Positions 1-56,208 of a DNA stretch of 64,000 nucleotides are shown in pieces. A model generated the notes under the pieces. It was given only the letters and a program-made list of their open reading frames with translations. It did not search any database and was not told the DNA's origin. Numbering within the stretch: the stretch's first letter is position 1; the number at the start of each line of letters is the position of its first letter. The stretch comes from an uncultured delta proteobacterium (lineage in GTDB: Bacteria > Myxococcota_A > Polyangia > Polyangiales > Polyangiaceae), in NCBI GenBank assembly GCA_963763745.1, contig CAVXQJ010000001.1, positions 2,431-66,430 on the forward strand, read 5' to 3'. Position numbers and translations under genes: made by a program.

Positions 1-253
1 GTGCGCATTGCCACGGCCTATATCGCGCAGCTCAACCAGGCCAAGGTGTTTGCCTCTCCGATCGTCACCACGATCGAGCCGGACAAGGCGTTCTACCCGG
101 CTGAGGCATTATCATCAGGACTACCTGACCCTGCATCCGACCCAGCCCTATATCGCAATCAACGATCTGCCCAAGGTCGAGGCGCTGGAGCAGCTGTTCC
201 CCAATCTCTACCGTTCCGACCCGGTGCTGGTGATGGCGAAGCAGACTCAGTAG
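1..253 (+). pseudogene. msrA: peptide-methionine (S)-S-oxide reductase MsrA, 3' fragment; window starts mid-gene and there is a 1-bp insertion frameshift near nt ~105
   Basis: Frame 1 gives ...PIVTTIEPDKAFYPAE and frame 2 continues DYHQDYLTLHPTQPY.... Joined, they match the conserved MsrA C-terminal block (PIVTEI.PA..FY.AEDDHQQYL). The run gag-gcattatcatcag differs from the expected gag-gactatcatcag by one extra base. Confidence 0.5.
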
Positions 254-329
254 GCGAAACGATGACGATGATCGAGGCATCCGAACGGGAAAAGGAATCC
301 GCGCGTCGGTTCGCGAGTCCCGCGTTCAA

Positions 330-1025
330 ATGGCGGCGCGCGTTCGCCGACTGTGGGGGACGTTCCTGCTGGTGCTGGTCGGCGCGGGCGGCGATGTCGC
401 GAGCGCGCTTTCGGGCGGCGAGCTGTCGCGGACCGCGGCCTCGATCGGCCCCGGAGTCATGGTGATGGCGGCGATCTATTTCATCGGCTCGGTCAGCGGC
501 GCCCATCTCAATCCGGCGGTGACGTTCGCGTTCGCTTTGCGGCGAAACTTTCCCTGGGCCCGCGTTCCCGGCTACGTGACGGCGCAGCTTCTCGGCGCGC
601 TGCTGGCGGCGGGCCTTCTTCACGCGTTGTTCGGCGCGCTCGCCGATGTCGGCGCGACCACGCCGGAGCATGGGCTCACGCCGCTTCAGGCCGTCGTTCT
701 CGAAGGCGTGCTGACCGCGGGCCTCGTCAACGTCATCCTGGCGACGGCGTCAGGCGCCCGCAACATCGGCACCAATGCCGGCATTGCGGTCGGCGGCTAC
801 ATCGCGCTGTCCGGACTGTGGGCGTCCGTCTTCACGGGCGCGTCGATGAACCCGGCGCGGACATTGGGCCCCGACATCCTGCGCGGCGATTTCTCGACCA
901 CCTGGATCTATATCGTCGGGCCGCTCGTGGGTGCGGCGATCGGCGTCGCGTTCGAATGGATTCTGATCGGGCCGCCGACGAAGTCGGGCAGCGCCGCCGC
1001 CCAGGGCGAAGACGATCGCGGCTAG
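330..1025 (+). CDS. MIP/aquaporin family channel (aquaporin Z / glycerol facilitator-like)
   Basis: Intact 231-aa ORF with two NPA boxes (HLNPAVT, SMNPART) and a six-helix hydrophobic pattern. Codon usage is CTG/GCC-rich. Confidence 0.85.
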   Translation: MAARVRRLWGTFLLVLVGAGGDVASALSGGELSRTAASIGPGVMVMAAIYFIGSVSGAHLNPAVTFAFALRRNFPWARVPGYVTAQLLGALLAAGLLHALFGALADVGATTPEHGLTPLQAVVLEGVLTAGLVNVILATASGARNIGTNAGIAVGGYIALSGLWASVFTGASMNPARTLGPDILRGDFSTTWIYIVGPLVGAAIGVAFEWILIGPPTKSGSAAAQGEDDRG

Positions 1026-1056
1026 GCCGCTCTTGCGGGCTTAGGCTCGATGGTTC

Positions 1057-1723
1057 TTAAAAGTCGATTGGAAAATTGGCCGGCCTTTTACGCCGCGATT
1101 CCGAGCGAAGCGGCGTGCGTGAGCGTGACGCAGATCGGATGATGGTCGGAGGGAGCGGCGGCGAGCGTGCGGGCGGCAGCGCAGTCGAGACCGCGCACCA
1201 GGCAACGGTCGAGGCGCAGAGGAATGATGTCGCCGGCGCGATGGGTCGGCTGGCGCGGTCCGACGTCGCGGGAAGCCGCGCACGCGCACAGGCCCCACCA
1301 TATTGAAATCCCCGATGACCGCCGCGTGTTGCGGCAGTGTCCGACCGATGCGGCGCAACTGGCGGCGGTTGAGCACCTGGCCGTGGGACAAAGTGCACGT
1401 TGGCGACCGCGAAATCCCCCAGATCGACGATCTGGCAGACGCGTTGAATCAATAGACCTTGCTGGAGCGCCAATTCGATCGGCGATTTATGGAACGGGGC
1501 CCAGGGCCCAGGTCGCTGGGCCATGGCCATGGACGTTGCCGGGCAGCACACGGCGGACGATAACGGCTCGCCGACGGCACGGGCGAGACCGTCGATGGAG
1601 CTTGTCGAGTTCCTGCATGAGCAATACGTCCGGCTGCTCATGCTCAATGAGGGAAATCACGTCGCTCACGCTGGCTCCGGTGAGCCGCAGCAAATTCCAA
1701 CTGATGATCTTCATGACTGTCAC
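1057..1723 (-). pseudogene. endonuclease/exonuclease/phosphatase (EEP) family protein, frameshifted
   Basis: N-terminus MKIISWNLLRL...PDVLLMQE (ORF 1487..1723) continues in another frame (ORF 1057..1647) with ...VDLGDFAVANVHF.... These are EEP-family motifs, and at least two frame changes are needed. Confidence 0.55.
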
Positions 1724-1922
1724 TTATACATGGGAATTCGAGGAAACTAAGGCAAGAGCGGTGCTGACTGGAGTTCGTTTAGCATGGATCTCCGTTATCG
1801 TCCGGTAAATTTGCCGGGAGTGCCAGGTCACCCAAGTCTGCCGCGTGGTGGTGTTCGGCTCGCCGCGATGGGCCGGCCCGTTCTCGGCGTAGTCTGGTAT
1901 CACCTCAACAAACCGTGAGAGC

Positions 1923-3335
1923 GTGCGGCGCGTGCTGGGAATACCCGAACATATCGAAGCGGCGGTACTTTCGGCCGCCCACATCCTCACCGCGACCGCC
2001 GTCACGGTGCACGTCCTCCTGCACCGGCGTGACGTCGGCTCCTCGGTCGGCTGGATCGGGCTGGCCTGGCTCTCGCCGGTCGTCGGCAGCCTGCTGTATG
2101 TGCTGCTGGGCATCAACCGCGTGCGGCGGCGTGCCCGCAGCCTGAGCGTGCCTGCGGCGGACGAACCGCCGCGGCGTGCCGCCACCGCCAGGCTGCGAAC
2201 ATCTCGCGGGCCTCGAACGGCGGCGCGGCGCATCAGCCGCCGCACGTTCAGCCTGGCAATGCGGTGGCGATGCTGGCCAACGGCGACGCCGCGTACCCGC
2301 AGATGATCGCCGCGATCGACGCGGCGCCGGCGAGCATTGCGCTGTCGAGCTACATCTTCCGCGCCGATCGGGTCGGCAACGAGTTCATCGCGGCGCTGGG
2401 CCGCGCGCGCGCGGCGCGGCGTCGAGGTGCGCGTGCTGATCGATGGCTACGGCGGCGGCTACCTGCGATCGGCGAGCTATCGCAGGCTGCGCCAGGCGCG
2501 CGTTCCGGCCGCACGCTTCATGCACTCGGCACTGCCATGGCGCATGCCGTTCCTGAACCTGCGCACACACCGCAAGATCCTGTGCGTCGACGGCCGCATT
2601 GCCTTCACCGGCGGGCTGAATATCGGCGCCGAGAACGTCGTGCGCGCAATCCACAGCACGTGGTGCTCGACACTCATTTCCGCTTCGAAGGCCCGGTGGT
2701 CGCGCAGCTGTGCGAGGCATTTGCCGGGCAGTGGTACTTCACCACCGGCGAGAGCGCTGGCCGGCCCGGCCTGGTTCCCGGGCTCGAACCGGTCGGCGAC
2801 AGCCTGGTGGGCGCGATACCTCCGGCCCGGATCAGGACCTGGAAAAGATCGAGCTGCTGGTGCTGGAAGCGATCGCCTGCGCGCGCTCGTCGGTGCAGAT
2901 CATGACGCCGTACTTCCTGCCGGACGATCGCATCATCACCGCGCTGGCACTGGCCGCCATGCGCGGCGTCGCGGTGGACCTCGTGCTGCCCGACGCAGCA
3001 ATCACCCGACGTCGACTGGGCGATGCGCGCGCACATCGGGCCGCTGCTGGCGCCGGCTGCCGCGTCTGGCCTCACCCGCCGCCGTTCGATCACTCGAAGC
3101 TGTTGACCGTGGACGGCATCTGGTGCTTTGTCGGCAGCGCGAACTGGGACATGCGCAGCTTCCGGCTGAATTTCGAGATCGATCTCGAGGTCTATCACGC
3201 CGATCTGGTGCGGCAGGTCGAGGACCTGATGCGGCGATGCACGGTTCTCCGATCACGCTGACGGAGCTCAACGGCCGCTCGCTGCCGGCGCGCCTGTTGC
3301 ACAGCGCGGCGCGGCTGATGTTCCCTTATCTGTAG
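1923..3335 (+). pseudogene. cls: cardiolipin synthase (PLD superfamily), at least 4-5 frameshifts
   Basis: N-terminal two-TM segment (LLYVLLGINRVRRRA). HKD motif 1 is HRKILCVDGRIAFTGGLNIG and HKD motif 2 is HSKLLTVDGIWCFVGSANWDMRSF. The pieces lie in four different reading-frame ORFs (1923.., 2264.., 2337.., 2710..). The plausible C-terminus ...ITLTELNGRSLPARLLHSAARLMFPYL is in the frame ending at 3335. Confidence 0.75.
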
Positions 3336-3456
3336 GTTCCGGGGCGCCCGCCCGGCTTGGATCGCGACATTGATCGAGATCATTTTTCTTTCGCGCCCTT
3401 GGCCCTAGCCTGCAACGATCGCGCCTCGCGCGCGGGCATGAGGGATTCGCATTGCT

Positions 3457-4384
3457 ATGACTTGGTTTCGTCGATCGATCGCCGTGCTCGTTGCGGCTGC
3501 CGCCATGGGCTGGATGTCGATGGCGGCGGCCGGGTATTATCTCTCCGAACCCGCCAACTATTCGATCGCGCCGCCGCCGGTGAGCCTTGCGGCTGAGACG
3601 GTGACAATTCCCTCCGCGTCGGGCAGCGCGTTGGCGGGCTGGTTCGTGCCCGCCGCGCCGCGCGCCGGCGCCCCCCGTACCGGCGCAATTGTGCTCATGC
3701 ACGGCTGGACCTCGACCCGCCGCAGCATGCTGGCGCGCATTCGGTTCCTGCACGACGCCGGCTACGCGGTCCTGTCGTTGGATTTTCAATCCCACGGCGA
3801 GAGCCTCGGCACACGGATCACGTTCGGACGATTGGAGGCGCTCGACGCCGAGGCCGCGATCGCGTGGACAAAGGAAAAACTTCCGGGCGAGAAAATCGGC
3901 GTGATTGGCGTCTCGCTCGGCGGCGCCGCGGCGGTGCTCGAGCCTGGCGGCTTTCCGGCGACGCGCTGAATTCTAAATCGGTTTTTCCGGACTTCAACAG
4001 CGCGGTCAGAGACCGGCTGTCGCGCTACATCGGTCCGCTCGCGCCGCTCGCGGCTCATCTCTTCATCGCGACCGTCGCACCCATCATCCACACGCGCGAC
4101 GGAGAGCTTCGCCCGATCGACCATATCCGCGACGTGGCGGGCCGGTGTTCGTCATCGGCGGAACCGACGACCGTCTGACCCGCATCGGCGAAACGCGCGA
4201 GATGTTCGCCGCGGCCGCCGAACCCAAGCAGTTGTGGGAAGTGGAAGGCGCCGGGCACATCGATCTCGAACGGTTCGCGCGCCCCGAGTACCGCCGCCGC
4301 ATCCTGGAATTTTTCGGCCGCTACCTTCGCGGCGACGGCGCTTCGGTTGTGGGGCGATGCGTAAGTCGTCCCGACCGAAATTAG
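3457..4384 (+). pseudogene. alpha/beta hydrolase (dienelactone hydrolase-like), 2 frameshifts
   Basis: Signal/TM N-terminus, nucleophile elbow GVSLGG, and a C-terminal part (...FVIGGTDDRLT...AGHIDLE...) continuing in two other frames (3864.., 4145..). Confidence 0.6.
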
Positions 4385-5645
4385 GCCGCGGCCTTCCGCT
4401 CGACCATGACCGCGACAATCGCGGCGCCCGCCGCCGACAGTGCGGCGGCGCCGCGAGCCCTATCTCATAACCGAACGCATAGGCGCCGATCCCGGCGGCA
4501 AGCGCGATGCCCGCCAGTTGCGCGACGCGGCTGACCGCGTTGTTGACGCCCGACGCCAATCCCTGATCGGCGGCGTCCAGGGCTCGACAACACCGAAGCA
4601 GTCAACGGCGCGACCAGCACGGCGAACGGAGGCCGAGCGACGCCAACGGCCCGAGCGCGCCGACGGCGAGCGAGGCGTGTCGGCCCACCGCGAGGGTGAT
4701 GTAGGCGAGTGCTGCGCCACTCGCCCCACGATCAGCATCGGGCGCGCGCCGATACGGTCCGCCAAGGCGCCGAACGGGCGCGACAACAATCCGATGGCGA
4801 GCGTGAGCGGCAGGAAAGCGAGCCCGGCCTGGGTCGGCGCAGAGGACGCCGGTCGACCAGGTCGAACGGCAGCAGGAAGAACATCACCGAAAGTCCGGCG
4901 TAGATCAGCAACGTCGCCGCGTTGAGGCCGACGAACGTGCGGTTGGCCAAGAGGCGCGGCGGCGTCATCGGGTGCGGGGTTCGCCGCTCCCACAAGGCGT
5001 AAGCGACCAGGCCAGCGACGGCGAAGACGGCGGCCGCCGCGAGAACGGCGGTGTGCGTATCGGAAGGCTGCGCGCCCGACGGGTCGGGGCCGATCCGGCT
5101 AGAACTTCAGGCCAGCGCACCGAGGGCGGCGGCGAGCACGGCGGCGCCGACCGCGTCGAAGCTCTTGCCCTCGCGCCGGTCGGCGGGCGCGAACATGGCC
5201 AACAGGCCGACCGCGATCAACGCCAGCGGCGGGTTGATCGCGAACACCCACGGCCAGCCGTAATTGGTCGTCAGCCAGCCGCCCAGCACCGGCCCGCCGG
5301 CGGTGGTGATCGCCGAGGCCGACGCCCACACGCCGATCGCCCGGCTGCGCTCGTTCTTGGGATAGATCGCGCCGATCAGCGCGAGACTGGTCGGCGTCAA
5401 CACCGCCGCGGCGGTGCCTTGCGCGACCCGGGCCGCGATCAGCCAGGGGGCGGAGGGCGCCAGCGCGCAGGCGATCGACGCGAGTCCAATGCGAAACAGC
5501 TCACGCGCAGCATGCGCGCTTTGCCGAAGGTGTCGCCCAGCGCGCCACCCACCAGCGTGAGCGAGGCCAGCGCCAGCACGTAGCCGTTGAGCACCCACTG
5601 GACGGTGGCGAGATCGGTGGCGAACGCCGCGCGCAGTTCGGCACC
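4381..5645 (-). pseudogene. DHA2-family MFS transporter (EmrB/QacA-like) lacking its first ~25 residues; at least 3 frameshifts
   Basis: DHA2 N-terminal signature ...TVQWVLNGYVLALASLTLVGGALGDTFGKARML..., then ...GGWLTTNYGWPWVFAINPP... and ...IYAGLSVMFFLLPF..., spread over ORFs 5439..6242, 5107..5598, 4460..4993 and 4152..4559. C-terminus ...AIVAVMVERKAAA*. Codons are CTG/GCC/GGC-rich. Confidence 0.55.
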
Positions 5646-6229
5646 GCGACCGTCAGCGCGCCGAGGCCGACGAGGAAGTTGATCGCGGCGGCGGCGCGGA
5701 CGGTGTTCGCTTCGCCCAGCGGGCCCATCATCACCATCACGCTCGTGATCGATGCGATCGCCGAGCCGAGCGTGTTCACGAAGTAGAGCTGGCCCACGCT
5801 CCTGCCGACGTTGCCGCTCTTGCGGACGAAATACGCGACGAGGAGCGGCAGCGTGCCGCCCATGAGCATCGTCGGAAAGAGAACGAGCAGAAACGTGACG
5901 AGCGCGGTCGCGAGGGGCGAGAGATTGAGCGTGAACGCGCCCACCCAATGAAAGAGCGGGAGCGACACGAGACCGAACGCACCGATGGACAGCTCGACGA
6001 GCGAAAACAGAAGCAGCGCCGGCCGCTCCGGATTCTTCGACACCGCTCCGCCCGCAAACGATCCAAACCCAAGGCCGAGCATGAACGCCGTGACGACGAC
6101 CGTCACCGATTCGATGTTGATTCCGTAAATCGCGAACAGCGATCGCTGCCAAACCACTTGATAAAGCAGCGCGGCGAACCCCGACGCGAGGAACACGAAC
6201 ATCAGCCCGATCGCGGAGCGACCTTTCAT
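5646..6229 (-). pseudogene. N-terminal membrane domain of a fused MFS/spermidine-synthase-like protein, truncated at a junction near 5645
   Basis: MKGRSAIGLMFVFLASGFAALLYQVVWQRSLFAIYGINIESVTVVVTAFMLGLGFGSFAGG... is the characteristic N-terminus of membrane-anchored polyamine aminopropyltransferase-like proteins. No synthase domain follows. Below ~5645 the reading frame runs into an unrelated MFS body with a different codon style. Confidence 0.45.
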
Positions 6230-6250
6230 CGCGCGCCCTCATACCACGTT

Positions 6251-6517
6251 ATGCTTTTGGGCGTGCCGAGTCCGTTTCGCAACGATGCCGTATTTCGCGA
6301 GGAGCGGGCCGCCGCGCTGCGCGCCGAACAAGCCGATCTCGCGCGCACGCTCGCAGACGCGGAGTGGCGCATTCGCGCGGCGCGGCGCGCGCGACTCGCG
6401 CCGTGGCTCGGCAAGGTTCGCTCCGTGATCGGGGCGTGGTTCATCGTGGTCGCGCTCGTCGGCGGCTACGCGGTGGGTCGCTTCGTGGTGGGCACCGCCG
6501 CGCACGAGTGTCGCTGA
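6251..6517 (+). CDS. hypothetical small protein (N-terminal coiled coil plus one TM helix)
   Basis: 88-aa ORF with its ATG inside the larger track ORF 5948..6517. Its stop overlaps the next start (TGATG). Composition is CTC/GCG-type. Confidence 0.4.
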   Translation: MLLGVPSPFRNDAVFREERAAALRAEQADLARTLADAEWRIRAARRARLAPWLGKVRSVIGAWFIVVALVGGYAVGRFVVGTAAHECR

Positions 6518-7152
6518 TGGAACGCGAAGCGCTCGCGGCGCTCGAACGCGAAGTCGAAGAGCTCCGGATTCGCGCCGCGGAGAAGCGCGTCCACGCGGAC
6601 TCGCTCGCTCACTCGCCACCGTGGAAGCACGAAGCCGAAATGTCGACGCTCGTGCTCGCGCTCTCGGTGCTCGTGGTCTTCGTCGCGGGACGCGCGATCG
6701 GCATCGCCCACGCGTCGGTGCAAAGCTGCGCGCCCGTGCCCGCGAACGCCTACGCGTCGATCACGCTCGAGCGCGAGCAGTGCTTCGGCGACTGCCCCGC
6801 TTACCGCGTGACGATCGACACCGATGGCGCGATGACGTGGCAAGGGCAGACCGACGTCGTCACGAAGGGCTCCGTGAATCGCACCGTCGACGCGAAGGCG
6901 GTGCGCGATCTCGCTCGCGAGATGTCGACGTCGTGCTTCTTCGACATGCGGAGCCGCTATGACTCCATCCACTATCACGAGGCGCGTGCGAGGATGACGC
7001 TGCGCGTGGGCGACCGCGTCCACACCGTGATGCACACGCCGGCCGACGACCAGCGCGGCGGCTACGGTTCGTGTTTGGCGCCGCGCGCGCTCGTGAGCCT
7101 CGAGCGACGCATCGACGAGATCGCGGGAACGAAGGCGCTCATCGGTCCGTGA
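6517..7152 (+). CDS. hypothetical membrane-anchored protein (coiled coil, TM, then a C-terminal domain with a CFGDC pair)
   Basis: 211-aa ORF translationally coupled to the preceding small gene. It has the same coiled-coil plus TM layout as its neighbour. Confidence 0.5.
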   Translation: MEREALAALEREVEELRIRAAEKRVHADSLAHSPPWKHEAEMSTLVLALSVLVVFVAGRAIGIAHASVQSCAPVPANAYASITLEREQCFGDCPAYRVTIDTDGAMTWQGQTDVVTKGSVNRTVDAKAVRDLAREMSTSCFFDMRSRYDSIHYHEARARMTLRVGDRVHTVMHTPADDQRGGYGSCLAPRALVSLERRIDEIAGTKALIGP

Positions 7153-8630
7153 GGCGAAGCTTGCTGTGCTTGATGCCGTACGTGAAATAAATCACGAGGC
7201 CGACGACGAGCCACGCGCCGAGGCGCGCCCAGTTCGTCCAGCCGAGGCCGTAAATCATCGAGGCCGTTGGCGAGCACGCCGAGCACCGCGACGACGGGCG
7301 CGCCGGGAACGCGGAACTGGCGCGGCGCGTCCGGATTTTTCACGCGCATGATCCAAACGCCCGCGCACACGAGGATGAACGCGAAGAGCGTCCCGATGCT
7401 CGTCATGTCGCCGACGATGTCCTCCGGAACGAACGCGGCGAAGAGCGACGTGAGCACGAAGAACGTCGCGTTGGATTTCTACGGGCGTGCGGAACGTCGG
7501 GTGGAGCTCGGCGAAAATCGGCGGGACGAGACCGTCGCGGCTCATCGAGAAGAAGACGCGCGATTGGCCGAGGAGCATGACGAGGATGACGGAAGAGAAC
7601 CCGCCGAGGATCGCGACGGTGACGAAGTTCGAGAGCCACTCGAACCCGTGCATGTACTTCGAGATCGCGAACGCGACGGAAGCCTCGCTGCCCGACGTGC
7701 GAAAATCGTCGACGGTCGCGACGCCGCGTCAGCACGTGGGCGAAGAGGATGTAGAGCATGGTGCAGATCGACGAGCGACCCGAGGATGCCGATGGGCATG
7801 TCGCGCTTCGGGTTCTTGGCTTCTTGCGCCGCGGTCGACACCGCGTCGAAGCCGATGAACGCGAAGAACACGATGCCCGCCGCGTTCACGATTCCCCAGA
7901 AGCCGCCGTAGTTGTGCGCCACGTGCTGCGAGTCGATGTACTTCGTCGGCTCGGGAATGTAGGGCGTGTGGTTCGCCGGGTTGATGAACGACCAGCCGAA
8001 GACGATGACCATGATGACGATCGAGACCTTCATGATCACGATGATGCGCGTTCAAGAGCGCCGATTCGCGCATGCCGCGGATGAGAACAGCGTGAGCATC
8101 AGAAGGATGAACAGCGCCGGCACGTTGATGATAGCCGTGGGTCGCGGTCGCGTGGCCTTGCGCGTCGAGCAGGTGCTCGCACGGCGAGTGACACCACTCG
8201 TACGGGATCTGCACGCCGAAAAATCCGAGCAGGCTTGATTGAGGTATTGGCTCCACGCGATCGCGACGGTCGCCGCGCCGATCGCGTACTCGAGCACGAG
8301 ATCCCAACCGATGATCCACGCCATGAGCTCGCCCATCGTCGCGTACGAGTACGTGTACGCGCTGCCCGCGATCGGAATCATCGAGGCGAATTCCGCGTAG
8401 CAGAGGCCGGCGAACGCGCAGCCGACGCCCGCGAGCGCGAATCCGAGAACGACCGACGGCCCCGCGCAGTCCGCGATCGCCGCGGCGGTTCGCACGAAGA
8501 GACCCGCGCCGATGATCGCCCCGATGCCGAGCGCGATGAGACTGAACGGGCCGAGCGTGCGCTTCAGACCGTGGTCGTCGGCGTCGGCCATGAGCTTCTC
8601 GAACGGCTTGCGGAGAAAGAGGTTCGCCAT
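7139..8630 (-). pseudogene. APC-family amino acid permease, about 3 frameshifts
   Basis: N-terminus MANLFLRKPF...LIALGIGAIIGAGLFV...GSAYTYSYATMGEL (ORF 8052..8630) continues across ORFs 7542..8039, 7255..7653 and 7062..7457. The C-terminal ...LGWTNWARLGAWLVVGLVIYFTYGIKHSKLRL* was recovered by shifting frame. Confidence 0.65.
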
Positions 8631-8656
8631 CGCGAACGAGCTATATCATTCAGTCG

Positions 8657-9934
8657 CTAAGCGAAGAGGCGAACGACGCCCCACACGATCGACCCGACGA
8701 TCCCGAGCGCCGAAAGAAGAAGGAGCGCCGAGAACTCGCGCGGATGGCGGTCGACCCAGTGCAAGAACGCGTGGACGACTTTCTTCGTGAAGCTGATGTG
8801 GCACGCGACCGGAATTTTTCCCGAGAGGATGTTGCGAAGGCCGGTCTCCATCGCTGCGACCGACGCAAAGCGCTTCTCGCGATCGCGCGGGAGCCCTTTG
8901 AGGAGGAACTGCAGATACTCGACGGGCGCGCGCGCCTTGAGGCCGCGAACTTTGAAGTCGTCGGTGGCGATCTCGTTCGCGATGCGCGTGGCGATGAGCT
9001 CCTGCAGCGACTTGACGTCGTTTTGCGGGTGTTCGAGCACGAGCATCTCGTAGAAGAGGAGCGAGAGCGAGAAGACGTCGCTGCGTTCGTCGAGGTCGTC
9101 GTTTCGACCCGCGGCTTGCTCGGGTGACATGTAGAGCGGCGTGCCGACGAGCGCGCCGTGGATGGTCGAGAGGAGCTTGCCGTCGCCGGTGGATTTCTTC
9201 GTCGGCGCGGGCTCGCTCGCGGCTTCCGCGCGTCGCTCGATTTTCTTCGCGACGCCCCAGTCCATCACCGTGACCTCGCCGAATGGGCCGATCATCACGT
9301 TCGCGGGTTTGATGTCGCGATGGATGATTCCGCGATCGTGCGCGTAACGAATCGCCTGCAAGATCTCGAGGAAGACGTGCGCGCGGTATTCGTGCGTGAA
9401 GCGCTCGGTCGTTTCGGGGTCACGCTTTGCGAGCTTCTCGATGATCGTCTCGAGCGTCTCGCCTTGCACGTGCTTCATCACGAGATACGGATCGCCGCGA
9501 TCGTCGACGCCGACGTCGTAGACGGGGACGATGCCGGGATGCTCGAGCTGCCCGACGGCGCGCACCTCGTCGGCGAAGCGGAGCACCGCGTCGCCGTGGC
9601 GTTGGTTCGGCAAGAGGCGCTTCACGGCGACGGTGCGGCGGATGTCGTTGTCTTTGACGAGCGCGACCTCGCCCATGCCACCGCGACCGAGGACATCGAC
9701 CATTTCGAAGCGCGGGCGCTCTTCGATCACGGATTCGTCGTGACCTTGTTTGCGACGCGGGAGGACGGTGCGGGCGACGCCGATCGTCGCGTCGAGCTTG
9801 GGCGACGAGGGTTGTGGCGGTGGCGACTCGGCGGGAGAAGTGTCGCCGAGCTCGTCGACCTTCGGTATGCCGAGTGTCGTCTTGATCAGCGCGAGATCGT
9901 CATCGAACGTGCTGGCTTTGGGCGACACACCCAT
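8657..9934 (-). CDS. serine/threonine protein kinase with C-terminal TM anchor
   Basis: Intact 425-aa ORF with GRGGMGEV, VAVK, HRDIKPANV, DWG and SPEQ motifs. Confidence 0.85.
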   Translation of the reverse strand: MGVSPKASTFDDDLALIKTTLGIPKVDELGDTSPAESPPPQPSSPKLDATIGVARTVLPRRKQGHDESVIEERPRFEMVDVLGRGGMGEVALVKDNDIRRTVAVKRLLPNQRHGDAVLRFADEVRAVGQLEHPGIVPVYDVGVDDRGDPYLVMKHVQGETLETIIEKLAKRDPETTERFTHEYRAHVFLEILQAIRYAHDRGIIHRDIKPANVMIGPFGEVTVMDWGVAKKIERRAEAASEPAPTKKSTGDGKLLSTIHGALVGTPLYMSPEQAAGRNDDLDERSDVFSLSLLFYEMLVLEHPQNDVKSLQELIATRIANEIATDDFKVRGLKARAPVEYLQFLLKGLPRDREKRFASVAAMETGLRNILSGKIPVACHISFTKKVVHAFLHWVDRHPREFSALLLLSALGIVGSIVWGVVRLFA

Positions 9935-9947
9935 CGCGCCGATCCTA

Positions 9948-10808
9948 TCACGCGGGGTTGGCGCGCGCCGCGCGGAGGAGCGTCAGCGCGGTGTACACGA
10001 CGACGACCGCGACGAGCCACTTCACCCAATAAAGCGGAAGCTCCTTCACGATGAACGCGGCGATCAAGACCGCGGGCACGCCACCGAGCGACAAGCCGAT
10101 CGCCGCGCCCGGGGCGTAGCTCCGTTGCCGAATGAACGGGATGCTCCCGAACGACTGCAAGAACGCGCACGAGCCCATCATGATCGGGAAGCCCGCTTTC
10201 GGATTCATGCCGAGGAGCGACACGACGACGAGGCACGGTGCGTAGAGCCCGACGCCGATCGTCATCAGCGCGCCCAAAATGAAATTCGCGACGACCGCGA
10301 ACACGAATGCCGCGCCGTCGAGACCGATCTTCGTCCCGTCTTGGGGCAAACCGATTTGTCGCCACACGAGCACGCCGCACACGACGAGGAGCGCGCTGCC
10401 CAAACCGATTTGCACTTTGCGCCGCGAGAAGCGCGCGACGATGGGCGCACCGACGAGCGCGCCGAGCGTCGCCGACGTGACCATCGCGACGAGCGTGCGC
10501 GGGTCCACGTTGATCTTGTCGATGAAGATGTACGCCTCGGCGAACGTGGGGATCGTGTGGCCGATGTTGAGCGTGCCGGGGACGAGGCGATCGTCGACGG
10601 TCTTCTTCGCGCGGTAGAACGTCGTCGTCGTCGCGAACAATCCGATACCGAGCGTGTCGAAGAAATTCGTGACCGCGCCGACGAGGATTTCGTATCCGCT
10701 CGGCATGATGCGCTCGCCGCGCGCGCGCGCGGCCACGAGCCCGACCACCCACCACGAGACGAAGACGAAGAACGCGACCCCGAGCGCGGCGAAGAGCGCG
10801 GACTTCAT
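9948..10808 (-). CDS. sulfite exporter TauE/SafE family membrane protein
   Basis: Intact 286-aa polytopic protein with an internal duplication typical of TauE/SafE (DUF81). Confidence 0.75.
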   Translation of the reverse strand: MKSALFAALGVAFFVFVSWWVVGLVAARARGERIMPSGYEILVGAVTNFFDTLGIGLFATTTTFYRAKKTVDDRLVPGTLNIGHTIPTFAEAYIFIDKINVDPRTLVAMVTSATLGALVGAPIVARFSRRKVQIGLGSALLVVCGVLVWRQIGLPQDGTKIGLDGAAFVFAVVANFILGALMTIGVGLYAPCLVVVSLLGMNPKAGFPIMMGSCAFLQSFGSIPFIRQRSYAPGAAIGLSLGGVPAVLIAAFIVKELPLYWVKWLVAVVVVYTALTLLRAARANPA

Positions 10809-13341
10809 CTAGCGAACGACATCGGTTGCGTCGCGAGGCCAGAGCTTCGCGTTCGAGAACGAGTAGCCGAGCACGCCGAAGAGCGACGTGAACGCGGTTC
10901 CGTTCGTGAAGCCCGTGGGCGGGTACGGCGTCGAGGGTTGCCCGTATTGCGGAAAGAGCGAGTCATCGACGCGGCACGCGCTGTCCACGACGAACTCGAA
11001 GAACTTTCCCGTTCCGTCGGGCGTGTCGTTCGTGATCGTCGGGCTCGTCAGCACGAGCAGCATGCTCTGGTAGGCGTCGGCAAACGGCCCGCCCGTCTCG
11101 ATGTCGGACGAGCCCACCGCGATCGCCGAGAATGGAAGCACCGTTCCTGCGTCGGTGATCGTGATGCTCGTCGGAAGGATCTCGGCGAGGCCGCTCGCGT
11201 TCGTGTACACGCCCGTCACGCTCGCAACGTTACCGCGCTTGGCCGTCGTCGCCGAAGCGATCCACACGCCGCTGTATGGCGCGAGCGAAATGTCCTGGAG
11301 CGAGAATCCCGCCGCGCTCACCGCGGTGACGTACGCCCCGGGGATGCTCACGATCCCTCCATTTTTTGGGTGTCTTGGATCGCTCGGATTGCGCAGCGTC
11401 TCGATCGACATCGCGCACGCCGCGGGCCCCGCGTTCACCACGCCCGGACACGTGTCGCATGCGTCGCCGCGCCCGTCGTTGTCGCCGTCGGCTTGCGTCG
11501 CATCCGCGATGCGCGGACACACATCGACGGAGGAGACCACGCCGTCGCCGTCGAGATCGTCGGCGCTCGGTTTCGTGCAGTGGTTCGTCGCGTCGTTCGG
11601 ACAACGATCGCACGCGTCGCCGACGCCGTCGCCGTCGGTGTCGGCTTGCTTGCCGTTGTCCATCGGGCGCGCGGGGTTGAAGATCGTGGGGCAATCGTCG
11701 GTTGCGTCGTCGATGCCGTCGCCGTCTTTGTCCGTGGCGGTGATCCCATTCGGATACTCCGCTCGATAAGGCGTGCAGCTCGGCTCGCTCGTCACCGTGT
11801 CGCTCTTGCAGAAGAAGAGCGGGTAGTACTTTTCGCCCGCCGTTCGAAGCGTCGCGAGCGTGTTCGTGTTTTGGAGATCCTGTGCGACGCACGCGCGCTT
11901 CGATTGCGTGCACACGTCGAGCTGCTCGCACGCCGCGCCGCCGATCTTCGCGTCGGCGACGAGCGCGTCGTCGCCGTACAAAACCGTTCCGCCGCGAAGC
12001 ACGAGCACGACGTCCTCGACGCCCGCATCGATCACCGCGCGGTGATCCTTGCTCGCCGATCCATCGAAGATGGCGATGTCGGCGACGTAGCCCGGCTTGA
12101 GCGCGCCGATCATGTCGCTCGCGCCCGCCGCCCACGCCGCGTTGAACGTGGCCATGCGCCGCAGATCGCCATCGGAGAAATGCTTTCCGAAATAATTCGT
12201 GTTGAGCGAGTCGGCGCACTTGAGCTCGCGGAGCATGTTCATGCTGCCCGACGGCATCCAATCGGTTCCGAGAGCGATGGGCACGCCGAGCGCGTCGAAC
12301 ATCGTGACGGGCGCGGTGTTGCCGTAGAGATCGACGTTCGTTCGCGCAGACCAAACGAGCCGCGTTTGATCCGCGCGAAGCGGCGCGATGTCGGTCGGCA
12401 GCGCCGCGATGCCGTGGATCATCGCGGTGGGTTGCTCCATCAAGTCGAAGTTGCCTTGCGTGTCGTTCGTGCAGACGTACTCGTTGTGCGCGGCGGCGTT
12501 CACGCCTTCGGCGATGTGCGGCAGGTACGCGTTCTGCCCGTCGACGCTCGCTTTCGTCGCGCGGACCGGATCCGTATGCACAACCGGACGTCAGCATCGT
12601 CCCGTCGGAGTCGTCGAGCGGGAACGTGTCGAAATCGGCCGCTTGCGATCGGCAATCCTTCGCAGAGCGTCTGGTCGTCGAGGTTTCGCGCGAGCCCTTT
12701 TTCCCGCCCGACGAGACCGTCGACGTCGCGCCGCCCATCACGAAGCGAAGCTCGGCGAAGAGCTGCACGGCGGCGGACGCGCCGGAGTTGTAGTTGAGCG
12801 CCGTGTGACCGTTGAGACCGGCGCGCCACTCGTTTCGGTGATCGAAGCGCTCGGTCCCGTGCGAGACGGGCGCGTTGTTCGCGTACGTGATGTGATCGTG
12901 CGCGTTGATGAGCCCAGGCGAGATGACGCCGTTCGCACACGCGACGATGGTCGCGGCCGCGTAACCGGGCGACGCGCTGCAGTCACACGACGCACACACG
13001 ATCGTTCCCGAATCGTCGACGAGCACTTCTCCGCGATGAAGAACTTCGTTCGGCGCGAGCACCGTGCCCTTGAAGAGCTTGCCCGATGTACCGTCGGTCA
13101 CGCTGCACGTCCCCGTGGCTGGAGGCGTGAGCGGAGGTTGGTTGCACTCGGTCACTTTGAAAGGCGCGTTGTTCGCGAGCGTGGGATCGCCGGGCTGCGG
13201 CGCGGAATCGACGCTCGCGTCAACTTGCGGCGAATCGCTCGTCGCGTCGGGACCGGCATCGCTCTGCTCTTGCGGCGACGAGCATGCGGTCACGTGGACG
13301 AGCGTCAGAGCGCAAAACACCGCCGCGCTACGAATCCACAT
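10809..13341 (-). pseudogene. secreted lipoprotein: amidohydrolase domain fused to thrombospondin type-3 calcium-binding repeats plus a C-terminal domain; 1-3 frameshifts near 12560-12720
   Basis: Start MWIRSAAVFCALTLVHVTACSS (lipobox). HxH metal motif GLINAHDHI. Later LGTDWMPSGS...VADIAIFDG. Repeated DxDGDGxxD..DxCP TSP3 motifs. The N-terminal part is in the frame of ORF 11230..13683 and the rest in ORF 10809..12581. A third frame (12500..12940) may hold a short intervening segment. Confidence 0.65.
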
Positions 13342-13380
13342 GCGACCTCCGCTCGAGCCCCTTATCATGGCCTCCCTCTC

Positions 13381-13902
13381 ATGAGCGAACAACGTAAGCC
13401 GACGCTGCGGCTCGGCAAGAAACGAGATCCGCGTTCGGACTCGATGCCACCGAGCGCGCGCAAGCCGGATTCGAAGCGCGACAGCCTCGCGGCGGCAGGG
13501 GTCGACGGGGGGAGCGGCGGCGACATCGACGAGCTTTTGGGTCGTTTGCTCGCACGCGCGACGCAAGCCGAAGTGCACGCGCAACATTTGGAGCAGACGC
13601 TCGCTCGCCTCAACGAAGAGCGCCTCGTGCTCGAGTCGCGCATGACGGAGCTCGTTCGTCAGCTCGACGACGCGGACACGCAACGCGCATCGCTCGAAGC
13701 GCAGCTGAAGACGACGAGCCAGTCGCGCAGGACCGACGGCCCCGTGACGCTCGCGTACGTGCGCAGCATGGCCGCCGAGCTCGTTCGCGCGCTCGATCGC
13801 GTGGGCTCACGCTCGGGCTCGATGGTCTCCGATCTGCCGACGCCTCGTCCGCCGTCGGATCTTCCGACGCCTCGACCGCGGAGCGATCGCCCGCGACGTT
13901 GA
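13381..13902 (+). CDS. hypothetical coiled-coil protein with basic N-terminus and a C-terminal 27-nt tandem repeat (DLPTPRPPS/DLPTPRPRS)
   Basis: 173-aa ORF from an internal ATG of track ORF 12388..13902. It ends 4 nt before the radical SAM gene. Confidence 0.45.
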   Translation: MSEQRKPTLRLGKKRDPRSDSMPPSARKPDSKRDSLAAAGVDGGSGGDIDELLGRLLARATQAEVHAQHLEQTLARLNEERLVLESRMTELVRQLDDADTQRASLEAQLKTTSQSRRTDGPVTLAYVRSMAAELVRALDRVGSRSGSMVSDLPTPRPPSDLPTPRPRSDRPRR

Positions 13903-13905
13903 ATC

Positions 13906-15411
13906 GTGCATAATGCACGGGTGAGTTTCTCCGATCGCGTCCGCGAGCGACTTGCCGCGGAAGTCGGCGGGGCGCGCAAGCAAGCGCCGTTCACCGTCGC
14001 GCTCGCGTACCCATCGCCGTACGCCGCGGGAATGAGCTCGCTCGGGTACCAGCGGATTTGGCGCGCGATCAACGAGACGAACGGCATGGCATGCGAGCGC
14101 GCGTTCCTCGACGACGAAGCCGAGCGCGATCTGAAGCTCGAGAAGCATCCGCTCACGTACGAATCGCTCCGGCCCATCGAAGAATTTCCGGTGATCGCGT
14201 TCAGCGTCGCCTACGAGATCGAGCTCGCGGGCGTCGTGGCGATGCTCGACGCGGCGAACGTTCCTTTGTTTCGCGAAGAGCGCGACGCGCATCACCCGTT
14301 CGTTCTCGGCGGTGGTCCGCTCACGTTTTCGAATCCGCTCCCGCTCGCTCCGTTTTGCGACGCGATCATCATGGGTGAAGCCGAAGAGCTCGTCGTGACC
14401 GTGCTCGCGATCATCGACGAGATGCGCTCCGATCGCGCGGCGTGTCTCGCGGCGCTCGCGCGCGTGCCGCACGTCTTCGTTCCGGAAATTCACGGCGCGA
14501 TCCTCCCCGAAATCGCCAAAGTGGATCAGGCGCTCTTGCCAGCATGGGCGCCGATTCGCACGCCGCATGCGGTCCTCTCCGACATGTTCTTGATCGAGAC
14601 CGAGCGCGGTTGCTCGCGCGCTTGCAAGTACTGCGTGATGCGTCGCTCGACGAACGGCGGCATGCGGCTCGTGCCGATGGAGACGATCCTCGGGCTCGTT
14701 CCGCACGACGCGAAGCGCGTCGGGCTCGTCGGCGCCGCGGTGAGCGATCACCCGCGCATCGCGCAGATCGTTTCGACGCTCGCAGATCAAGGACGCGAGG
14801 TCGGGCTCTCGTCGCTGCGTCCCGATCGCTTGAACGACGATCTCGTTTCAGCCCTGAAAAAAGCCGGAACGCGCACGCTCACGACGGCGATGGACGGACC
14901 GTCCGACAGGCTCCGCGACATGCTCGAGCGCAAGGCGCGCATCAAGCACCTCGAACGCTGCGCCGAGCTCGCGAAGAAACACGGCATGGATCGTCTCAAG
15001 CTCTATTTGATGATCGGTCTGCCGACGGAGACGAACGCCGACATCGACGAGTGCGTCCGGTTCACGACCGAGCTCTCGAAGATCGTCCCCATCGCGCTCG
15101 GCATCGCGCCGTTTTGCGCGAAGCGAAACACCCCACTCGACGGCGAACCGTTTGCGGGGATCGACGTCGTGATGGACCGACTCGATCGATTGAAGCGCGG
15201 CCTTCGCGGACGCGCGGACGTGCGATCGACGAGCGCGAAGTGGGCGTGGGTGGAGTACGTCCTCGCACAAGGGAGCGAGAGCGAAGGTCGCGCAGTCGCA
15301 GAAGCCGCGCGTGCGGGCGGATCGTTCGCGACGTTCAAGCGCGCATTCGAAAAGCTCGAACAGGGCGCGCCCGCGCGTCCCAGGCGTGCGCTTTCGATTG
15401 CGCGCGTGTGA
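13906..15411 (+). CDS. B12-binding domain-containing radical SAM protein
   Basis: Intact 501-aa ORF with a CxxxCxxC cluster (GCSRACKYC) after an N-terminal B12-binding-like region. Confidence 0.8.
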   Translation: MHNARVSFSDRVRERLAAEVGGARKQAPFTVALAYPSPYAAGMSSLGYQRIWRAINETNGMACERAFLDDEAERDLKLEKHPLTYESLRPIEEFPVIAFSVAYEIELAGVVAMLDAANVPLFREERDAHHPFVLGGGPLTFSNPLPLAPFCDAIIMGEAEELVVTVLAIIDEMRSDRAACLAALARVPHVFVPEIHGAILPEIAKVDQALLPAWAPIRTPHAVLSDMFLIETERGCSRACKYCVMRRSTNGGMRLVPMETILGLVPHDAKRVGLVGAAVSDHPRIAQIVSTLADQGREVGLSSLRPDRLNDDLVSALKKAGTRTLTTAMDGPSDRLRDMLERKARIKHLERCAELAKKHGMDRLKLYLMIGLPTETNADIDECVRFTTELSKIVPIALGIAPFCAKRNTPLDGEPFAGIDVVMDRLDRLKRGLRGRADVRSTSAKWAWVEYVLAQGSESEGRAVAEAARAGGSFATFKRAFEKLEQGAPARPRRALSIARV

Positions 15412-15432
15412 GCATGCGCTAGATCCTATTCA

Positions 15433-15867
15433 ATGCTCGAAGCCGGGACGGAGAGCGAGATCCTCGCGAGGAACGTCGCGTTCTACGATGCGTTCAACTC
15501 GCGCGACATCCGCGCGATGGATCGCATGTGGGCCGAGCGCGCGCCCGTCGTGTGTTTGCACCCCGGTTCGACCGCGCTGCACGGCAGGTCGCAGGTGATT
15601 CGCTCGTGGCAATCGATCTTGTCGAGCGACGGCGCGCCGAAGGTTTCGATCGAAGGCTCGCGCGTCGTGATGCTCGGCGACACGGCGATGGTGCTCTGCT
15701 ACGAGCGCGTCGTCGATCCCGACACGGGCAACGGCGCGGTCCTCGCCGCGACGAACGTGTTCGTGCGCGAAGTCGGCGAGTGGCGGCTCGTGCATCACCA
15801 CTCGTCCGCGATCGGTCGCATCGTGACGGAAGACGACGCGCCCGTCGCCCCGAAGACGCTGAACTAG
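15433..15867 (+). CDS. SnoaL-like / NTF2-fold (DUF4440-like) protein
   Basis: 144-aa ORF with the N-terminal FYDAFNSRD...M..W pattern of the NTF2-like superfamily. Confidence 0.55.
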   Translation: MLEAGTESEILARNVAFYDAFNSRDIRAMDRMWAERAPVVCLHPGSTALHGRSQVIRSWQSILSSDGAPKVSIEGSRVVMLGDTAMVLCYERVVDPDTGNGAVLAATNVFVREVGEWRLVHHHSSAIGRIVTEDDAPVAPKTLN

Positions 15868-17599: not shown

Positions 17600-18693
17600 T
17601 CACCACGCGCTGCGCGGCCAGCGCAAATCCACGGCGCCGTCGCCCGCCCAGGGCGCGGCGAACGCGTCGCGCACGACGAGCTCGGCGAGCTTTCCGCGCG
17701 GCGAGAATCCCCACTCGGCCTCTTGCGACACGTCGTCGGGGTCCGCGTAGACGCGCCACACGAAGAAGCCGGCGAAGTCCGGCTCGTCGAGCAGCGGACG
17801 AACGAGCGCGCGGTATGCGAGCGCTTGCGCGTGCTCGTCGACGCGCACTTGCTTCATCGAGTCGGGCCACTCCCACGGACGGATCGCGGGATCGGGGCGC
17901 GTCGTGTAACCGATCTCCGTGAAGAGGACGGGCTTGCGCCATGTCTCGGCGAGCTTGTGCACTTTGACGCGCACGCGTTCGCCGCCCGCGCGAAGCTCGC
18001 TCTCGGTCGCGCGATCGCGATCGGCGAGCGGATAGAACGCGTTGATGCCGATCAGATCGAGCGAGCCGAGGATGACCGTGTCGTCGACGTCGTCCCAGTT
18101 CGCCGAGTACGTGAGAGGCCGTGATACGCGCGGCGCACTTCGTCGAGCACGGCGAGGAACGTCGGCGCGCGACCGCTCGTCACCCAACTGCGAAGCTCCA
18201 CGCCCGCGCTGAAGATCTCCGCGTGCGTCTCTTCCGCGACGCGCGCCCAAGCGACGACGAAGTCCCCGTAGCTGCGCGCCCATTGCGACCAGCCTTCGGT
18301 CGTCTTCGGATCGATCTCCGCGCGCCACGCGCCCGACTCGACCCACAAGTGCGGCACGAGCATGACGTGCATGCCGCGCTCGTGCGCCATGCGGATCGCG
18401 CGAATCACCTGTTCGCGATTTTTTTCGAACGGTGCTTCGAACGTCGGATCGACGCCCGCGCCGGACAGATCGTTCACGCGTCCGAACGGCGTGATCGCGA
18501 CCCAGCTCGCGCCCCACGACGCGCACTCCTCGACGGAGCGCTCGTACGCGCTCGATCCATAACCGACGCCGGGGTGATACGCGTTTTCGATGGGACCGAT
18601 CGTGACGCCGCGGACTGCGTCGCGACCGCTGAGCGACCACGCTTGACCCGCAGCGGGGAGCGCGAGCGACGCCGCGAGCACGAGCGCGCGCAT
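17600..18693 (-). CDS. secreted glycoside hydrolase (TIM-barrel, GH26/GH113-like), one frameshift near 18120
   Basis: Signal peptide MRALVLAASLALPAAG, then ...MLVPHLWVESGAWRAE... (ORF 18052..18693) joined to ...LTYSANWDDVDDTVILGSLDLIGINAFYP...FTEIGY... (ORF 17600..18640). Confidence 0.5.
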
Positions 18694-34886: not shown

Positions 34887-34893
34887 AACACAG

Positions 34894-34980
34894 CGGAGGA
34901 GAAGAGATTCGAACTCTTGGAGGGCTTGCACCCTCGCCGGTTTTCAAAACCGGTGCCATAGACCACTCGGCCACTCCTCC
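34894..34980 (-). tRNA. tRNA-Ser (anticodon TGA), type II with long variable arm
   Basis: Reverse complement reads GGAGGAG(TGGCCGAGTGGTCTATGGCA)CCGGT-TTTGAAA-ACCGG(CGAGGGTGCAAGCCCTCC)AAGAGTTCGAATCTCTT CTCCTCC G. The acceptor, D, anticodon and T arms are all base-paired. CCA is not encoded. Confidence 0.85.
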
Positions 34981-54237: not shown

Positions 54238-56208
54238 ATGCCGAATCGCCTCGCGAACGAAGCGTCCCCGTACCTCCAGCAGCACGCGAAAAACCCCGTC
54301 GATTGGTTCCCCTGGAGCAGCGAAGCGCTCGCGAAGAGCAAGAGCGAAGACAAACCGATCCTCCTCAGCGTGGGTTATTCGGCGTGCCACTGGTGCCACG
54401 TCATGGAGCACGAGAGCTTCGAGGACGAAGCGATCGCCAAAGTGATGAACGAGCATTTCGTCTGCATCAAAGTCGATCGCGAAGAGCGCCCCGACATCGA
54501 TCAGATTTACCAACTCACCGCGCAGCTCCTCGGTCGCAGCGGCGGCTGGCCTCTCACCGTGTTTCTCACGCCCGATCAAAGACCATTTTTCGCGGGCACG
54601 TATTTTCCGCCGACCGATCGCCACGGCATGCCCGCGTTCCCGCGCATCCTTCTCGCCGTCGCCGACGCATACCGCACCAAGCGAGACGAGATCGATCTCC
54701 AAGCGCGCGAGCTCGCCGACGCCATCGCACAGGTCTCACAACCCGAAACGAAAACCGGCGAGCTCTCGACGGCGCTCCTCGCGAAAGCCGCCGAACGCCT
54801 CTCGATGCGCTTCGACGATGTGAATGGCGGCTTCGGATCGCGCCCGAAATTCCCGAGCACGATGAGCCTCGACGTCCTCCTCGCGCACGGGACGCTCAAC
54901 GGCGACGCGCGCGCGCTCGCGCGCGTTCGCAAAGCGCTCGATGGCATGCGCGGCGGCGGCATCTACGATCAGCTCGGCGGCGGCTTTCATCGCTACTCCA
55001 CCGACGAACGCTGGCTCGTGCCGCACTTCGAGAAAATGCTCTACGACAACGCGCTCCTTCTGCGGCTCTACGTCGACGGTTGGCGCGCGTTCGGCGACGA
55101 GCGCTACGCGACCTCCGCGCGTGAAATCGTCGGGTGGCTCGAGCGCGAAATGCTCGATCCGGGCGGCGCGTTCTACGCGACGCAAGACGCCGACAGCGAA
55201 GGTCACGAGGGAAAGTTCTTCGTGTGGACGAAAGACGAAGTTCGCGACGCGTGCGGCGACGACGCGGACCTCGCGTGCGCGCGCTTCGGTGTGACGGACG
55301 AGGGCAACTTCGAAGACTCCTCGTCGAGCGTTCTCCACATCGCCAAATCCATCCAAGACATCGCGCTCGCGAAATCGCTCGCACCGAGCGAAGTCACGCG
55401 GCGCCTCGAAGTCGCGCGCACGAAGCTCCTCGCGCACCGCGAAAAACGCATCAAACCGTTTCGCGACGAAAAGATCCTCGCGTCGTGGAACGGCCTCCTC
55501 ATCGGCGCGCTCGCCGACGCCGCATGCGCGCTTTCCGAGCCCACGTGGCTCGAGCTCGCCGAGCGCGCGTTCGCGTTCGTGATGGAGAAGCTCGTGAAAG
55601 ACGATCGCGTCCTTCGCCACGTCAAAGACGGCGTCCCAAAAGGCCCAGGGTTCCTCGACGACCAAGCGTACGTCGCGTGCGCCGCGATCGATCTCTACGA
55701 GGCCACGGGCAAGAGGGCGTTCCTCGATCGCGCGCGCGCGTTCGCCGAGACGATCCGCAAGCACTTCACCGGCGAAGACGGCGAGCTCTTTCTCACGTCA
55801 GACGATGGGGAGCCTCTCATCGCGCGAACGCAAGACATCTACGACCACGCGATCCCGAGCGCGTCATCCAAAGCACTCGAGCTCTTCATCCGACTTGGCG
55901 AAGAACCGAAGCAGCTCGAATCGCTCGCCGCGTCGGCTGTCGCGAACCCGTTCGGTCTCTCGTCGATCGCGCTCCTCGCCGACCGCGTCGCGCGGACGAG
56001 CACCGAAGTGACGCTCAGCGGAAACCCCAAAGAGCTTTTCGACGCGACCTACCGCGCCTTCATTCCGCACCGCGCCGTCGTGCACAAAGAAGGCACGGAA
56101 GGGTGCGCGTTTGTTTGCCACAACCACGCTTGCTCTCTGCCCGTATCTGGGTATCGTGAGCTGATGGCGCTGGTATCGCCGAAACGCGATACGAGCCCAA
56201 GTCGCTGA
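54238..56208 (+). CDS. thioredoxin-domain protein YyaL (DUF255 plus six-hairpin glycosidase-like domain)
   Basis: [26 protein letters not shown]...[19 protein letters not shown] is the canonical YyaL N-terminus. 656 aa, intact. Confidence 0.85.

Follow-up and report, generated by a model that had tools for sequence, protein, structure and literature searches.

Introduction

Long-read metagenome assemblies are known to suffer from frameshift errors, clipped-read joins and contigs that are chimeric, and in soil data the frameshifts are worse (PMC13087279). In the window, by which we mean the whole 64-kb stretch of DNA analysed here, we found a join that resembles inter-genome chimeric contigs. 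The two flanks differ in phylum-level affinity and in k-mer and codon signature, the gene order of both parents is interrupted at a single point within open reading frames (ORFs), the consensus quality of the foreign part is low, and mobile-element hallmarks are absent. A 7-nt microhomology, which such artefacts do not require, is present at the join. Microhomology-mediated illegitimate recombination is another described system with which the locus can be compared, and it shares with this process a 7-nt microhomology exactly at the join of otherwise unrelated sequences and a preserved donor gene order. It differs from this process in that no second boundary is seen (the foreign flank reaches window position 1), no independent occurrence was found in JGI metagenome contigs, the acquired genes appear non-functional as sequenced, and the error density changes in a step, which points to unequal read support.

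The genes on the two sides of the join are each related to a described family. On one side is an MFS gene related to the DHA2 (EmrB/QacA) permeases; its homologues are 470-490 aa long and are annotated as EmrB/QacA by JGI, whereas the gene in the window is short of ~22 profile positions at the start (part of TM1) and carries 7 frameshifts. After frame correction, its best NCBIfam match was TIGR00711 (E=1.7e-58, 198.6 bits, profile positions 23-405 of 485). This score does not reach the curated cutoff of 230.2, and neither does that of the intact relative P0257 (213.3). By these matches, the MFS protein is DHA2/EmrB-like and not a curated TIGR00711 member. The ORF on the other side, which encodes a membrane protein, matched NF037959, the family of fused MFS/spermidine synthases (PRK03612-type membrane polyamine aminopropyltransferases), over profile positions 5-176 of 480; its 32.8 bits stay below the cutoff of 40, and no match to Pfam Spermine_synth was found in it. 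It is homologous to the N-terminal membrane domain of this family, but its lineage has a separate 199-229-aa protein without the synthase domain. It is a homologue of the NF037959 membrane half rather than a member.

Results

A sharp join at 5654-5660

A junction at ~5645, inside the interval 5590-5700, had been proposed in the original prediction. Alignments with related loci confirmed a sharp join inside this interval, but at 5654-5660 instead of ~5645. The alignments of the native relatives L095, L001, L002 and L005 to the window end at nt 5654/5655, and the alignment of the foreign relative L088 begins at nt 5660 and runs downward with 87.9% nt identity over 1265 nt, so the breakpoint was placed between these positions. 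The closest native relative, L095, shares 88% nt identity with the window and follows it through ..GGCCTCGGCGCGCTG, to nt 5654, beyond which it goes on as GCGCTCCACC; the match of L088 to the window opens at CGCGCTGACGGTCGCGGTGCCGAAACTG. The breakpoint itself (5654..5660) is a 7-nt microhomology, CGCGCTG on the minus strand, common to both inferred parents. For a random join of this base composition, the probability of a microhomology of at least 7 nt is p~8e-4, with both parents inferred from relatives. On both sides, synteny with the respective relatives extends as far as the breakpoint but not across it.

The minus-strand hybrid ORF starts at 6229, ends at 5501 and encodes 242 aa. The hybrid protein tracks the membrane protein family up to ..AAAINFLVGLGAL and then reads TVAVPNCARRS.., at the point where the family has ..ALHLRER and a short low-complexity tail. 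After frame correction, the MFS body matches P0257 (473 aa) from ..SSAL/TVAVPKLRAAFAADLATVQWVLNGY.. onwards. The sequence had been thought to continue in another frame at the join, but the analysis showed that the join is in frame (..G-A-L/T-V-A-V-P..). The frame change is caused by a 1-nt deletion at 5637-5639, 15 nt past the join, where L088 has AAA and the window has AA (CCGAAACTG and CCGAACTG, respectively).

We also searched the surroundings of the join. The junction peptide, used as a degenerate pattern against the JGI metagenome contigs (that collection only), gave 3 matches, all of which were in unrelated proteins. No integrase, transposase or tRNA gene was found near the junction, the sole tRNA of the window being located at 34.9 kb, and no meaningful flanking direct or inverted repeat was found there. 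A long shared sequence able to explain a graph mis-join is also absent at the junction.

Native genes and the lost partner gene

The native gene at the join encodes an MFS-like stand-alone membrane protein (5654..6229, minus strand, residues 1-192), whose homology ends after ..INFLVGLGAL. Over its first ~192 residues, the protein shares 81-93% identity with a large protein family from soil and peat metagenomes, with names such as 'predicted membrane-bound spermidine synthase' and 'fused MFS/spermidine synthase [Polyangiaceae bacterium]'. All of these family proteins are 199-229 aa long, indicating that a stand-alone gene of about 200-229 aa is present in all relatives. The ORF from 6229 had been described as the N-terminus of a fused MFS/spermidine synthase; the domain is indeed homologous, but it belongs to a stand-alone 199-229-aa gene. 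The copy in the window lacks only its last ~10-35 low-complexity codons, and a comparison with L002 showed no frameshift in it. A literature search for papers on the stand-alone membrane or spermidine-synthase-like protein gave nothing relevant.

In 8 related loci from at least 6 lineages (L001-L005, L092, L094 and L095), the gene next downstream of the membrane gene is invariably one of 520-522 aa, with a spacing that ranges from a 4-nt overlap to a 3-nt gap. This partner, with a Spermine_synth domain and a score of 71 bits on NF037959, is the true fused MFS/spermidine synthase. A Tricorn-like gene comes next after the partner in all loci but two short contigs, followed by thymidine kinase in most loci. 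Using tblastn with the L001/L002 genes, we found the fused MFS/spermidine synthase, the Tricorn-like and the other downstream partner genes nowhere in the 64-kb window. The earlier view that the join truncated both genes thus holds for the 5' end of the MFS gene, but the membrane gene lost only its tail, and the main loss is the partner gene.

Upstream of the membrane gene, the region is rearranged differently in L001, L002, L092 and L095, and the neighbourhood is therefore plastic.

To the right of the membrane gene, two genes lie on the plus strand: an ORF for an 88-aa coiled-coil/TM protein (6250-6517) and a DUF6438 protein gene (6514-7152), which covers profile positions 2-115 of 116 in a single frame. 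Both have the native k-mer signature, no frameshift was detectable in either of them, and they appear translationally coupled. Together with the membrane gene, they form a clean native 1.49-kb stretch abutting the junction. The next gene is a native amino-acid permease gene (7148..8630, minus strand), which has 8 frameshifts and is 91% identical to its L001 orthologue after correction. The tblastn searches with the L001/L002 genes also located the native amidohydrolase (13341-10812), TauE (10805-9975), the membrane gene match (6205-5654), and a 173-aa gene, radical SAM and SnoaL (13381-15864). The right flank is syntenic with L001, L002 and L092 in its amidohydrolase, TauE, amino-acid permease, radical SAM and SnoaL genes.

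Foreign genes at 1-5660

The gene on the foreign side of the join encodes a 5'-truncated DHA2-like MFS transporter (4381..5660, minus strand), which aligns with residues ~52-473 of P0257 and has the foreign codon regime. It contains 7 frameshifts and 1 in-frame stop, with the first indel at 5637-5639, and the frame-corrected protein shows 87-89% aa identity to P0257. The predicted absence of the first ~25 residues was right as to the 5' truncation but not as to its extent, the N-terminal loss being 53 residues compared to P0257, 19 compared to P0258 and ~22 profile positions of TIGR00711.

The remaining genes of this flank are broken as well. The alpha/beta-hydrolase gene (3457..4384, plus strand) is spread over three reading frames with at least 2 frameshifts, as judged from its ORF structure and a frame segmentation, and only its first 170-aa piece matches Pfam Hydrolase_4/Abhydrolase_6. 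The cardiolipin-synthase-like PLD (cls) gene (1932..3335, plus strand) contains at least 7 frameshifts, matches Pfam PLDc_2 and corresponds to PLDc proteins of L006 and L088. The endonuclease/exonuclease/phosphatase (EEP) gene (1091..1723, minus strand) has 5 frameshifts, and its corrected product shares 87% identity with the L006 protein. The aquaporin (MIP) gene (262..1025, plus strand; Pfam MIP, E=1.8e-48) is 86% identical to the L006 aquaporin and has 1 frameshift near 350; it is also 100% identical to P0121, a protein encoded on an NCBI/ENA contig. The window opens inside msrA (PMSR), at residue 150 of 231, so that only the 3' part of this gene (1..241, plus strand; 1 frameshift near 106) is present and foreign sequence reaches window position 1.

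The gene order msrA-MIP-EEP-PLDc (cls) is the exact order in L006 and L007, with 77% nt identity over 3.3 kb. In L088, EEP and PLDc are separated from the MFS gene by two other genes, and the intact start of this MFS gene has a TPR gene upstream of it.

Taxonomic affinity and composition of the two flanks

The right-flank proteins show 81-93% aa identity to Polyangiaceae/MYX-bin metagenome proteins. On the left, the named relatives of the MFS protein come from Paramesorhizobium, Sinorhizobium and Xanthobacteraceae (67-68%), and those of the aquaporin include Rhizomicrobium (65-69%). The matches of the left-flank DNA in a plasmid and chromid collection were mostly Rhizobium and Sinorhizobium, and a scan of genome contigs with the aquaporin gave only relatives at 67% identity or less, spread over many phyla, and was of no use for taxonomy. 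The left flank appears Alphaproteobacteria-like, as judged from the names of relatives and not from a phylogeny. Compared separately, the two halves bear out the suspicion that one of them is foreign: the right half has Polyangiaceae/Myxococcota affinity, and the left half has Rhizobiales-type or Rhizomicrobium names.

The composition changes at the same place. The tetranucleotide correlation to the 6.25-64 kb profile, calculated in 2-kb windows, was 0.78-0.85 left of the junction and 0.93-0.98 in windows between 6 and 56 kb, and a two-model Markov log-likelihood ratio reached its maximum at ~5736. With GC-normalised k-mers, positions 1-5653 gave 0.90 against L006 and 0.84 against L088, compared to 0.69-0.73 against the rest of the window, and the rest of the window gave 0.95 against its relative L001. 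The two predicted codon regimes were also found: the Leu CTC:CTG counts were 19:38 left of the join as opposed to 116:15 beyond it (Fisher p=5.5e-14), and the Ala GCG:GCC usage of the two sides differed as well (p=4.6e-4). L006 and L088 have the left pattern (CTG>CTC), and L001 has the right pattern (CTC>>CTG). In codon usage, as in the original prediction, and in k-mer composition, the flanks therefore differ from each other, and each matches its own relatives. The composition of the foreign flank is unameliorated.

A low-GC region at 56-61 kb was considered as a second foreign segment and rejected. Its GC-normalised k-mers match the Polyangiaceae-type loci L002 and L005 (0.92 and 0.88, respectively), and it was treated as native for this reason.

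Frameshifts and the nature of the indels

Frameshifts were counted by homologue-guided frameshift-aware alignment and Pfam split-domain checks. A GC3 frame plot and Viterbi segmentation by codon usage were too noisy in this high-GC DNA for window-wide frameshift counts. Suspected frameshifts at 35-37 kb proved to be separate intact genes in the Pfam split-domain check.

The left 5.65 kb contains at least 23 frameshifts, with a density of ~4 one-base indels per kb in the foreign flank. The claim that this part is riddled with frameshifts is thereby confirmed, but native genes are frameshifted too. The permease has 8 frameshifts, all between 8235 and 7259, the amidohydrolase has 3 within 12564-12701, and the GH113 gene has 1 near 18110, suggesting that the assembly as a whole is indel-prone; no frameshift was found in the native kinase, TauE and radical SAM genes. 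Native positions 5660-7150 are also free of frameshifts. One-base indels number ~35 in total from position 1 to 8.6 kb. Across the join, there are 0 indels in 1.49 kb of native sequence compared to 7 in 1.27 kb of foreign sequence, and the dense foreign indel patch starts within 20 nt of the junction. By chance, the 7 indels closest to the junction would all lie on the foreign side with a probability of p~0.004.

To judge the nature of the indels, we compared them with the substitutions in the same genes. The third-codon-position share of mismatches to relatives was 0.56-0.62 in frameshifted genes and 0.54-0.62 in intact ones. Compared with three outgroups, the MFS protein has 8 private changes at conserved sites (P0257 has 1), against 7 frameshifts. 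The frame-corrected proteins are full length and 86-91% identical to their relatives, without large deletions. Under neutral decay, an indel:substitution ratio of roughly 1:10 or lower is expected, together with some larger deletions. The two dense patches, in the foreign flank and in the permease, are opposite in bias (del:ins 6:3 versus 1:8, p~0.05), and the excess of insertions in the permease patch runs counter to the deletion bias that is usual in bacteria. Only some of the indel sites lie in homopolymers, such as the AAA to AA change at 5637-5639, and no sequencing platform was therefore assigned. From these sequence comparisons, we infer that the indels are consensus errors at roughly raw-read density, technical rather than evolutionary in origin.

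Discussion

The junction at 5654-5660 is probably a technical chimera with low-coverage foreign sequence and not a biological gene fusion. In a metagenome assembly that is prone to indel errors and probably built from long reads, a chimeric molecule, a chimeric read or a mis-join would have attached at least 5.65 kb of poorly supported Alphaproteobacteria-like chromosomal DNA to a Polyangiaceae-like myxobacterial contig, and the indels would reflect near-single-read support. If the indels are technical, their density would track read support, which would then change at the junction; this step in read support is read from error density only, and two stretches of one chromosome would not be expected to show it. 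The chimeric join of the original prediction, put forward with two alternatives, a misassembly with low-coverage foreign sequence and a real recombination/HGT breakpoint, is thus supported, and we favour the first option on account of the indel step and the technical-looking indels. The unameliorated composition, the truncation of both genes, the loss of an invariant partner and the lack of mobility features are supporting evidence for a chimera, as is the result that no junction peptide was found in a related context in the JGI metagenomes. The 7-nt microhomology counts against it, being a typical product of in-vivo illegitimate recombination and too short for a k-mer graph mis-join. It fits chimeras formed by polymerase template switching, whereas it does not fit blunt ligation or chimeric reads made in silico. 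The patchy errors (dense in the permease, absent from 1.5 kb, dense in the foreign flank) and their opposite bias are not explained by one chimeric read across the whole region.

The same microhomology would be accounted for by a genuine recent inter-phylum transfer, in which illegitimate recombination at the microhomology joined at least 5.65 kb of Alphaproteobacteria-like DNA to the myxobacterial chromosome, perhaps in a low-abundance strain only, with the frameshifts still being sequencing errors from its low coverage. In such an event, the incoming DNA would have taken the place of the fused MFS/spermidine-synthase gene, and the membrane protein would have become fused in frame to the MFS transporter, giving a hybrid of a stand-alone MFS-like half-domain and a DHA2 transporter without part of TM1. 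We consider this unlikely, although several observations agree with it: the join is in frame (with a 1/3 chance of this alone), there is no long shared sequence to explain a graph mis-join, the neighbourhood upstream of the membrane gene is plastic, and a strain-specific segment would also give a step in error density. However, the transfer would have truncated both genes and removed a partner that is invariant in 8 related loci, the composition is donor-like without amelioration, no mobility genes or attachment-site features are present, and no independent occurrence was found in the JGI metagenome contigs. In addition, the prior for a cross-phylum illegitimate recombination inside two ORFs is much lower than that for chimeric reads or contigs in metagenome assemblies, an error class that has been documented (PMC13087279).

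It is very improbable that the junction and the frameshifts are both real, with an old acquired fragment and the neighbouring permease decaying as pseudogenes. The many frameshifts and the one in-frame stop in the left-flank genes and the permease would agree with decay, but the indel:substitution ratio is ~1:1 instead of the roughly 1:10 or lower expected under neutral decay, and the codon-position pattern of the mismatches is the same as in intact genes. The high identity of the corrected full-length proteins (86-91%, without large deletions), the insertion bias of the permease patch against the usual bacterial deletion bias, and the unameliorated composition also argue against this reading.

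Under the preferred explanation, a technical chimera, the organism itself most likely does not have this join, and neither gene is unusual in itself, only the join. If the join were real, it would be a cleanly resolved case of cross-phylum illegitimate recombination, which would be interesting but not unprecedented. The main value of the finding is quality control, in that it flags contaminated, low-quality sequence. The 242-aa ORF at 5501-6229 would be an artefactual hybrid, and the numerous short ORFs in the first 8.6 kb would be genes broken by indels. Left uncorrected, such sequence may lead to false HGT calls and false pseudogene counts and may seed databases with false fusion proteins. 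The first 5.65 kb of the window, and possibly more sequence leftward, should not be assigned to the myxobacterial genome.

Gene order around the truncated membrane gene

The membrane gene of the window (5654-6229, minus strand) is a native, stand-alone MFS-like gene cut at the junction, and we compared its downstream gene order in Polyangiaceae-like relatives at the loci L001 (9014-15681), L002 (10001-16549), L092 (6001-11257), L094 (371-5972) and L095 (268-1220). In every one of these relatives, the gene for a stand-alone membrane protein of about 200-229 aa has a gene for a 520-aa fused MFS/spermidine synthase as its next downstream neighbour; the two overlap by up to 4 nt or lie up to 3 nt apart. 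The third gene in this order, on contigs that extend far enough, is a Tricorn-like gene encoding 640-1020 aa. The N-terminal membrane domain of the fused protein is a paralogue of the short membrane protein, with about 27% identity. The short protein has no synthase domain, yet some sources name it "fused MFS/spermidine synthase" or "spermidine synthase".

The neighbourhood comparison of window positions 6250-13500 with L001, L002, L092 and L095 showed that the downstream side is invariant in the relatives, while the upstream side of the membrane gene differs in each relative examined: we found a permease, a Peripla_BP_6 gene with an ABC permease, or the 173-aa gene directly. In the window, a plus-strand gene pair (6250-7152) encoding an 88-aa coiled-coil and TM protein and a DUF6438 protein is located between the amino-acid permease gene and the membrane gene; in L001 the permease gene and the membrane gene are just 20 nt apart. 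The two genes of the pair appear to be translationally coupled via a TGATG overlap at about 6514, and the coiled-coil and TM N-terminus of the DUF6438 protein resembles the 88-aa protein.

Frameshifts and repeats in native genes

The native permease gene (7148-8630, minus strand) carries eight one-base frameshifts, mostly insertions, all confined to 8235-7259, and its reading frame is regained by several frameshift pairs or triplets. Its neighbours, a kinase gene (8657-9934) and the DUF6438 gene (6514-7152), are unbroken. The indel bias towards insertion in the permease gene is opposite to that towards deletion in the foreign flank (1-5653; p~0.05).

Three further local frameshifts lie inside the native TSP_3-repeat amidohydrolase gene (13341-10812), in a stretch of 140 nt (12564-12701). 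Within this gene, a 44-nt unit also occurs four times in imperfect form (11446-11732), at a spacing of 69-90 nt, and these copies probably encode the aspartate-rich TSP_3-type calcium-binding repeats. The native GH113 glycoside hydrolase gene is split by one frameshift at about 18110, so that positions 13-161 and 161-271 of the Pfam profile fall on two overlapping ORFs (18052-18693 and 17600-18640).

Composition of the remaining window

The sole RNA gene found within the window, tRNA-Ser(TGA) (34893-34980, minus strand), is associated with no compositional break. At about 56000-61000, the GC content is 0.57-0.60 versus about 0.67, and the raw k-mer profile is deviant. Tad-pilus-type Peptidase_A24 (56818-57357) and TadE-like (57288-57833) genes are located there, followed by three ORFs (602, 195 and 649 aa; 57843-62156) without a Pfam match. 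After GC normalisation, the k-mer profile of about 56000-61000 is still like that of the Polyangiaceae-type relatives L002 and L005.
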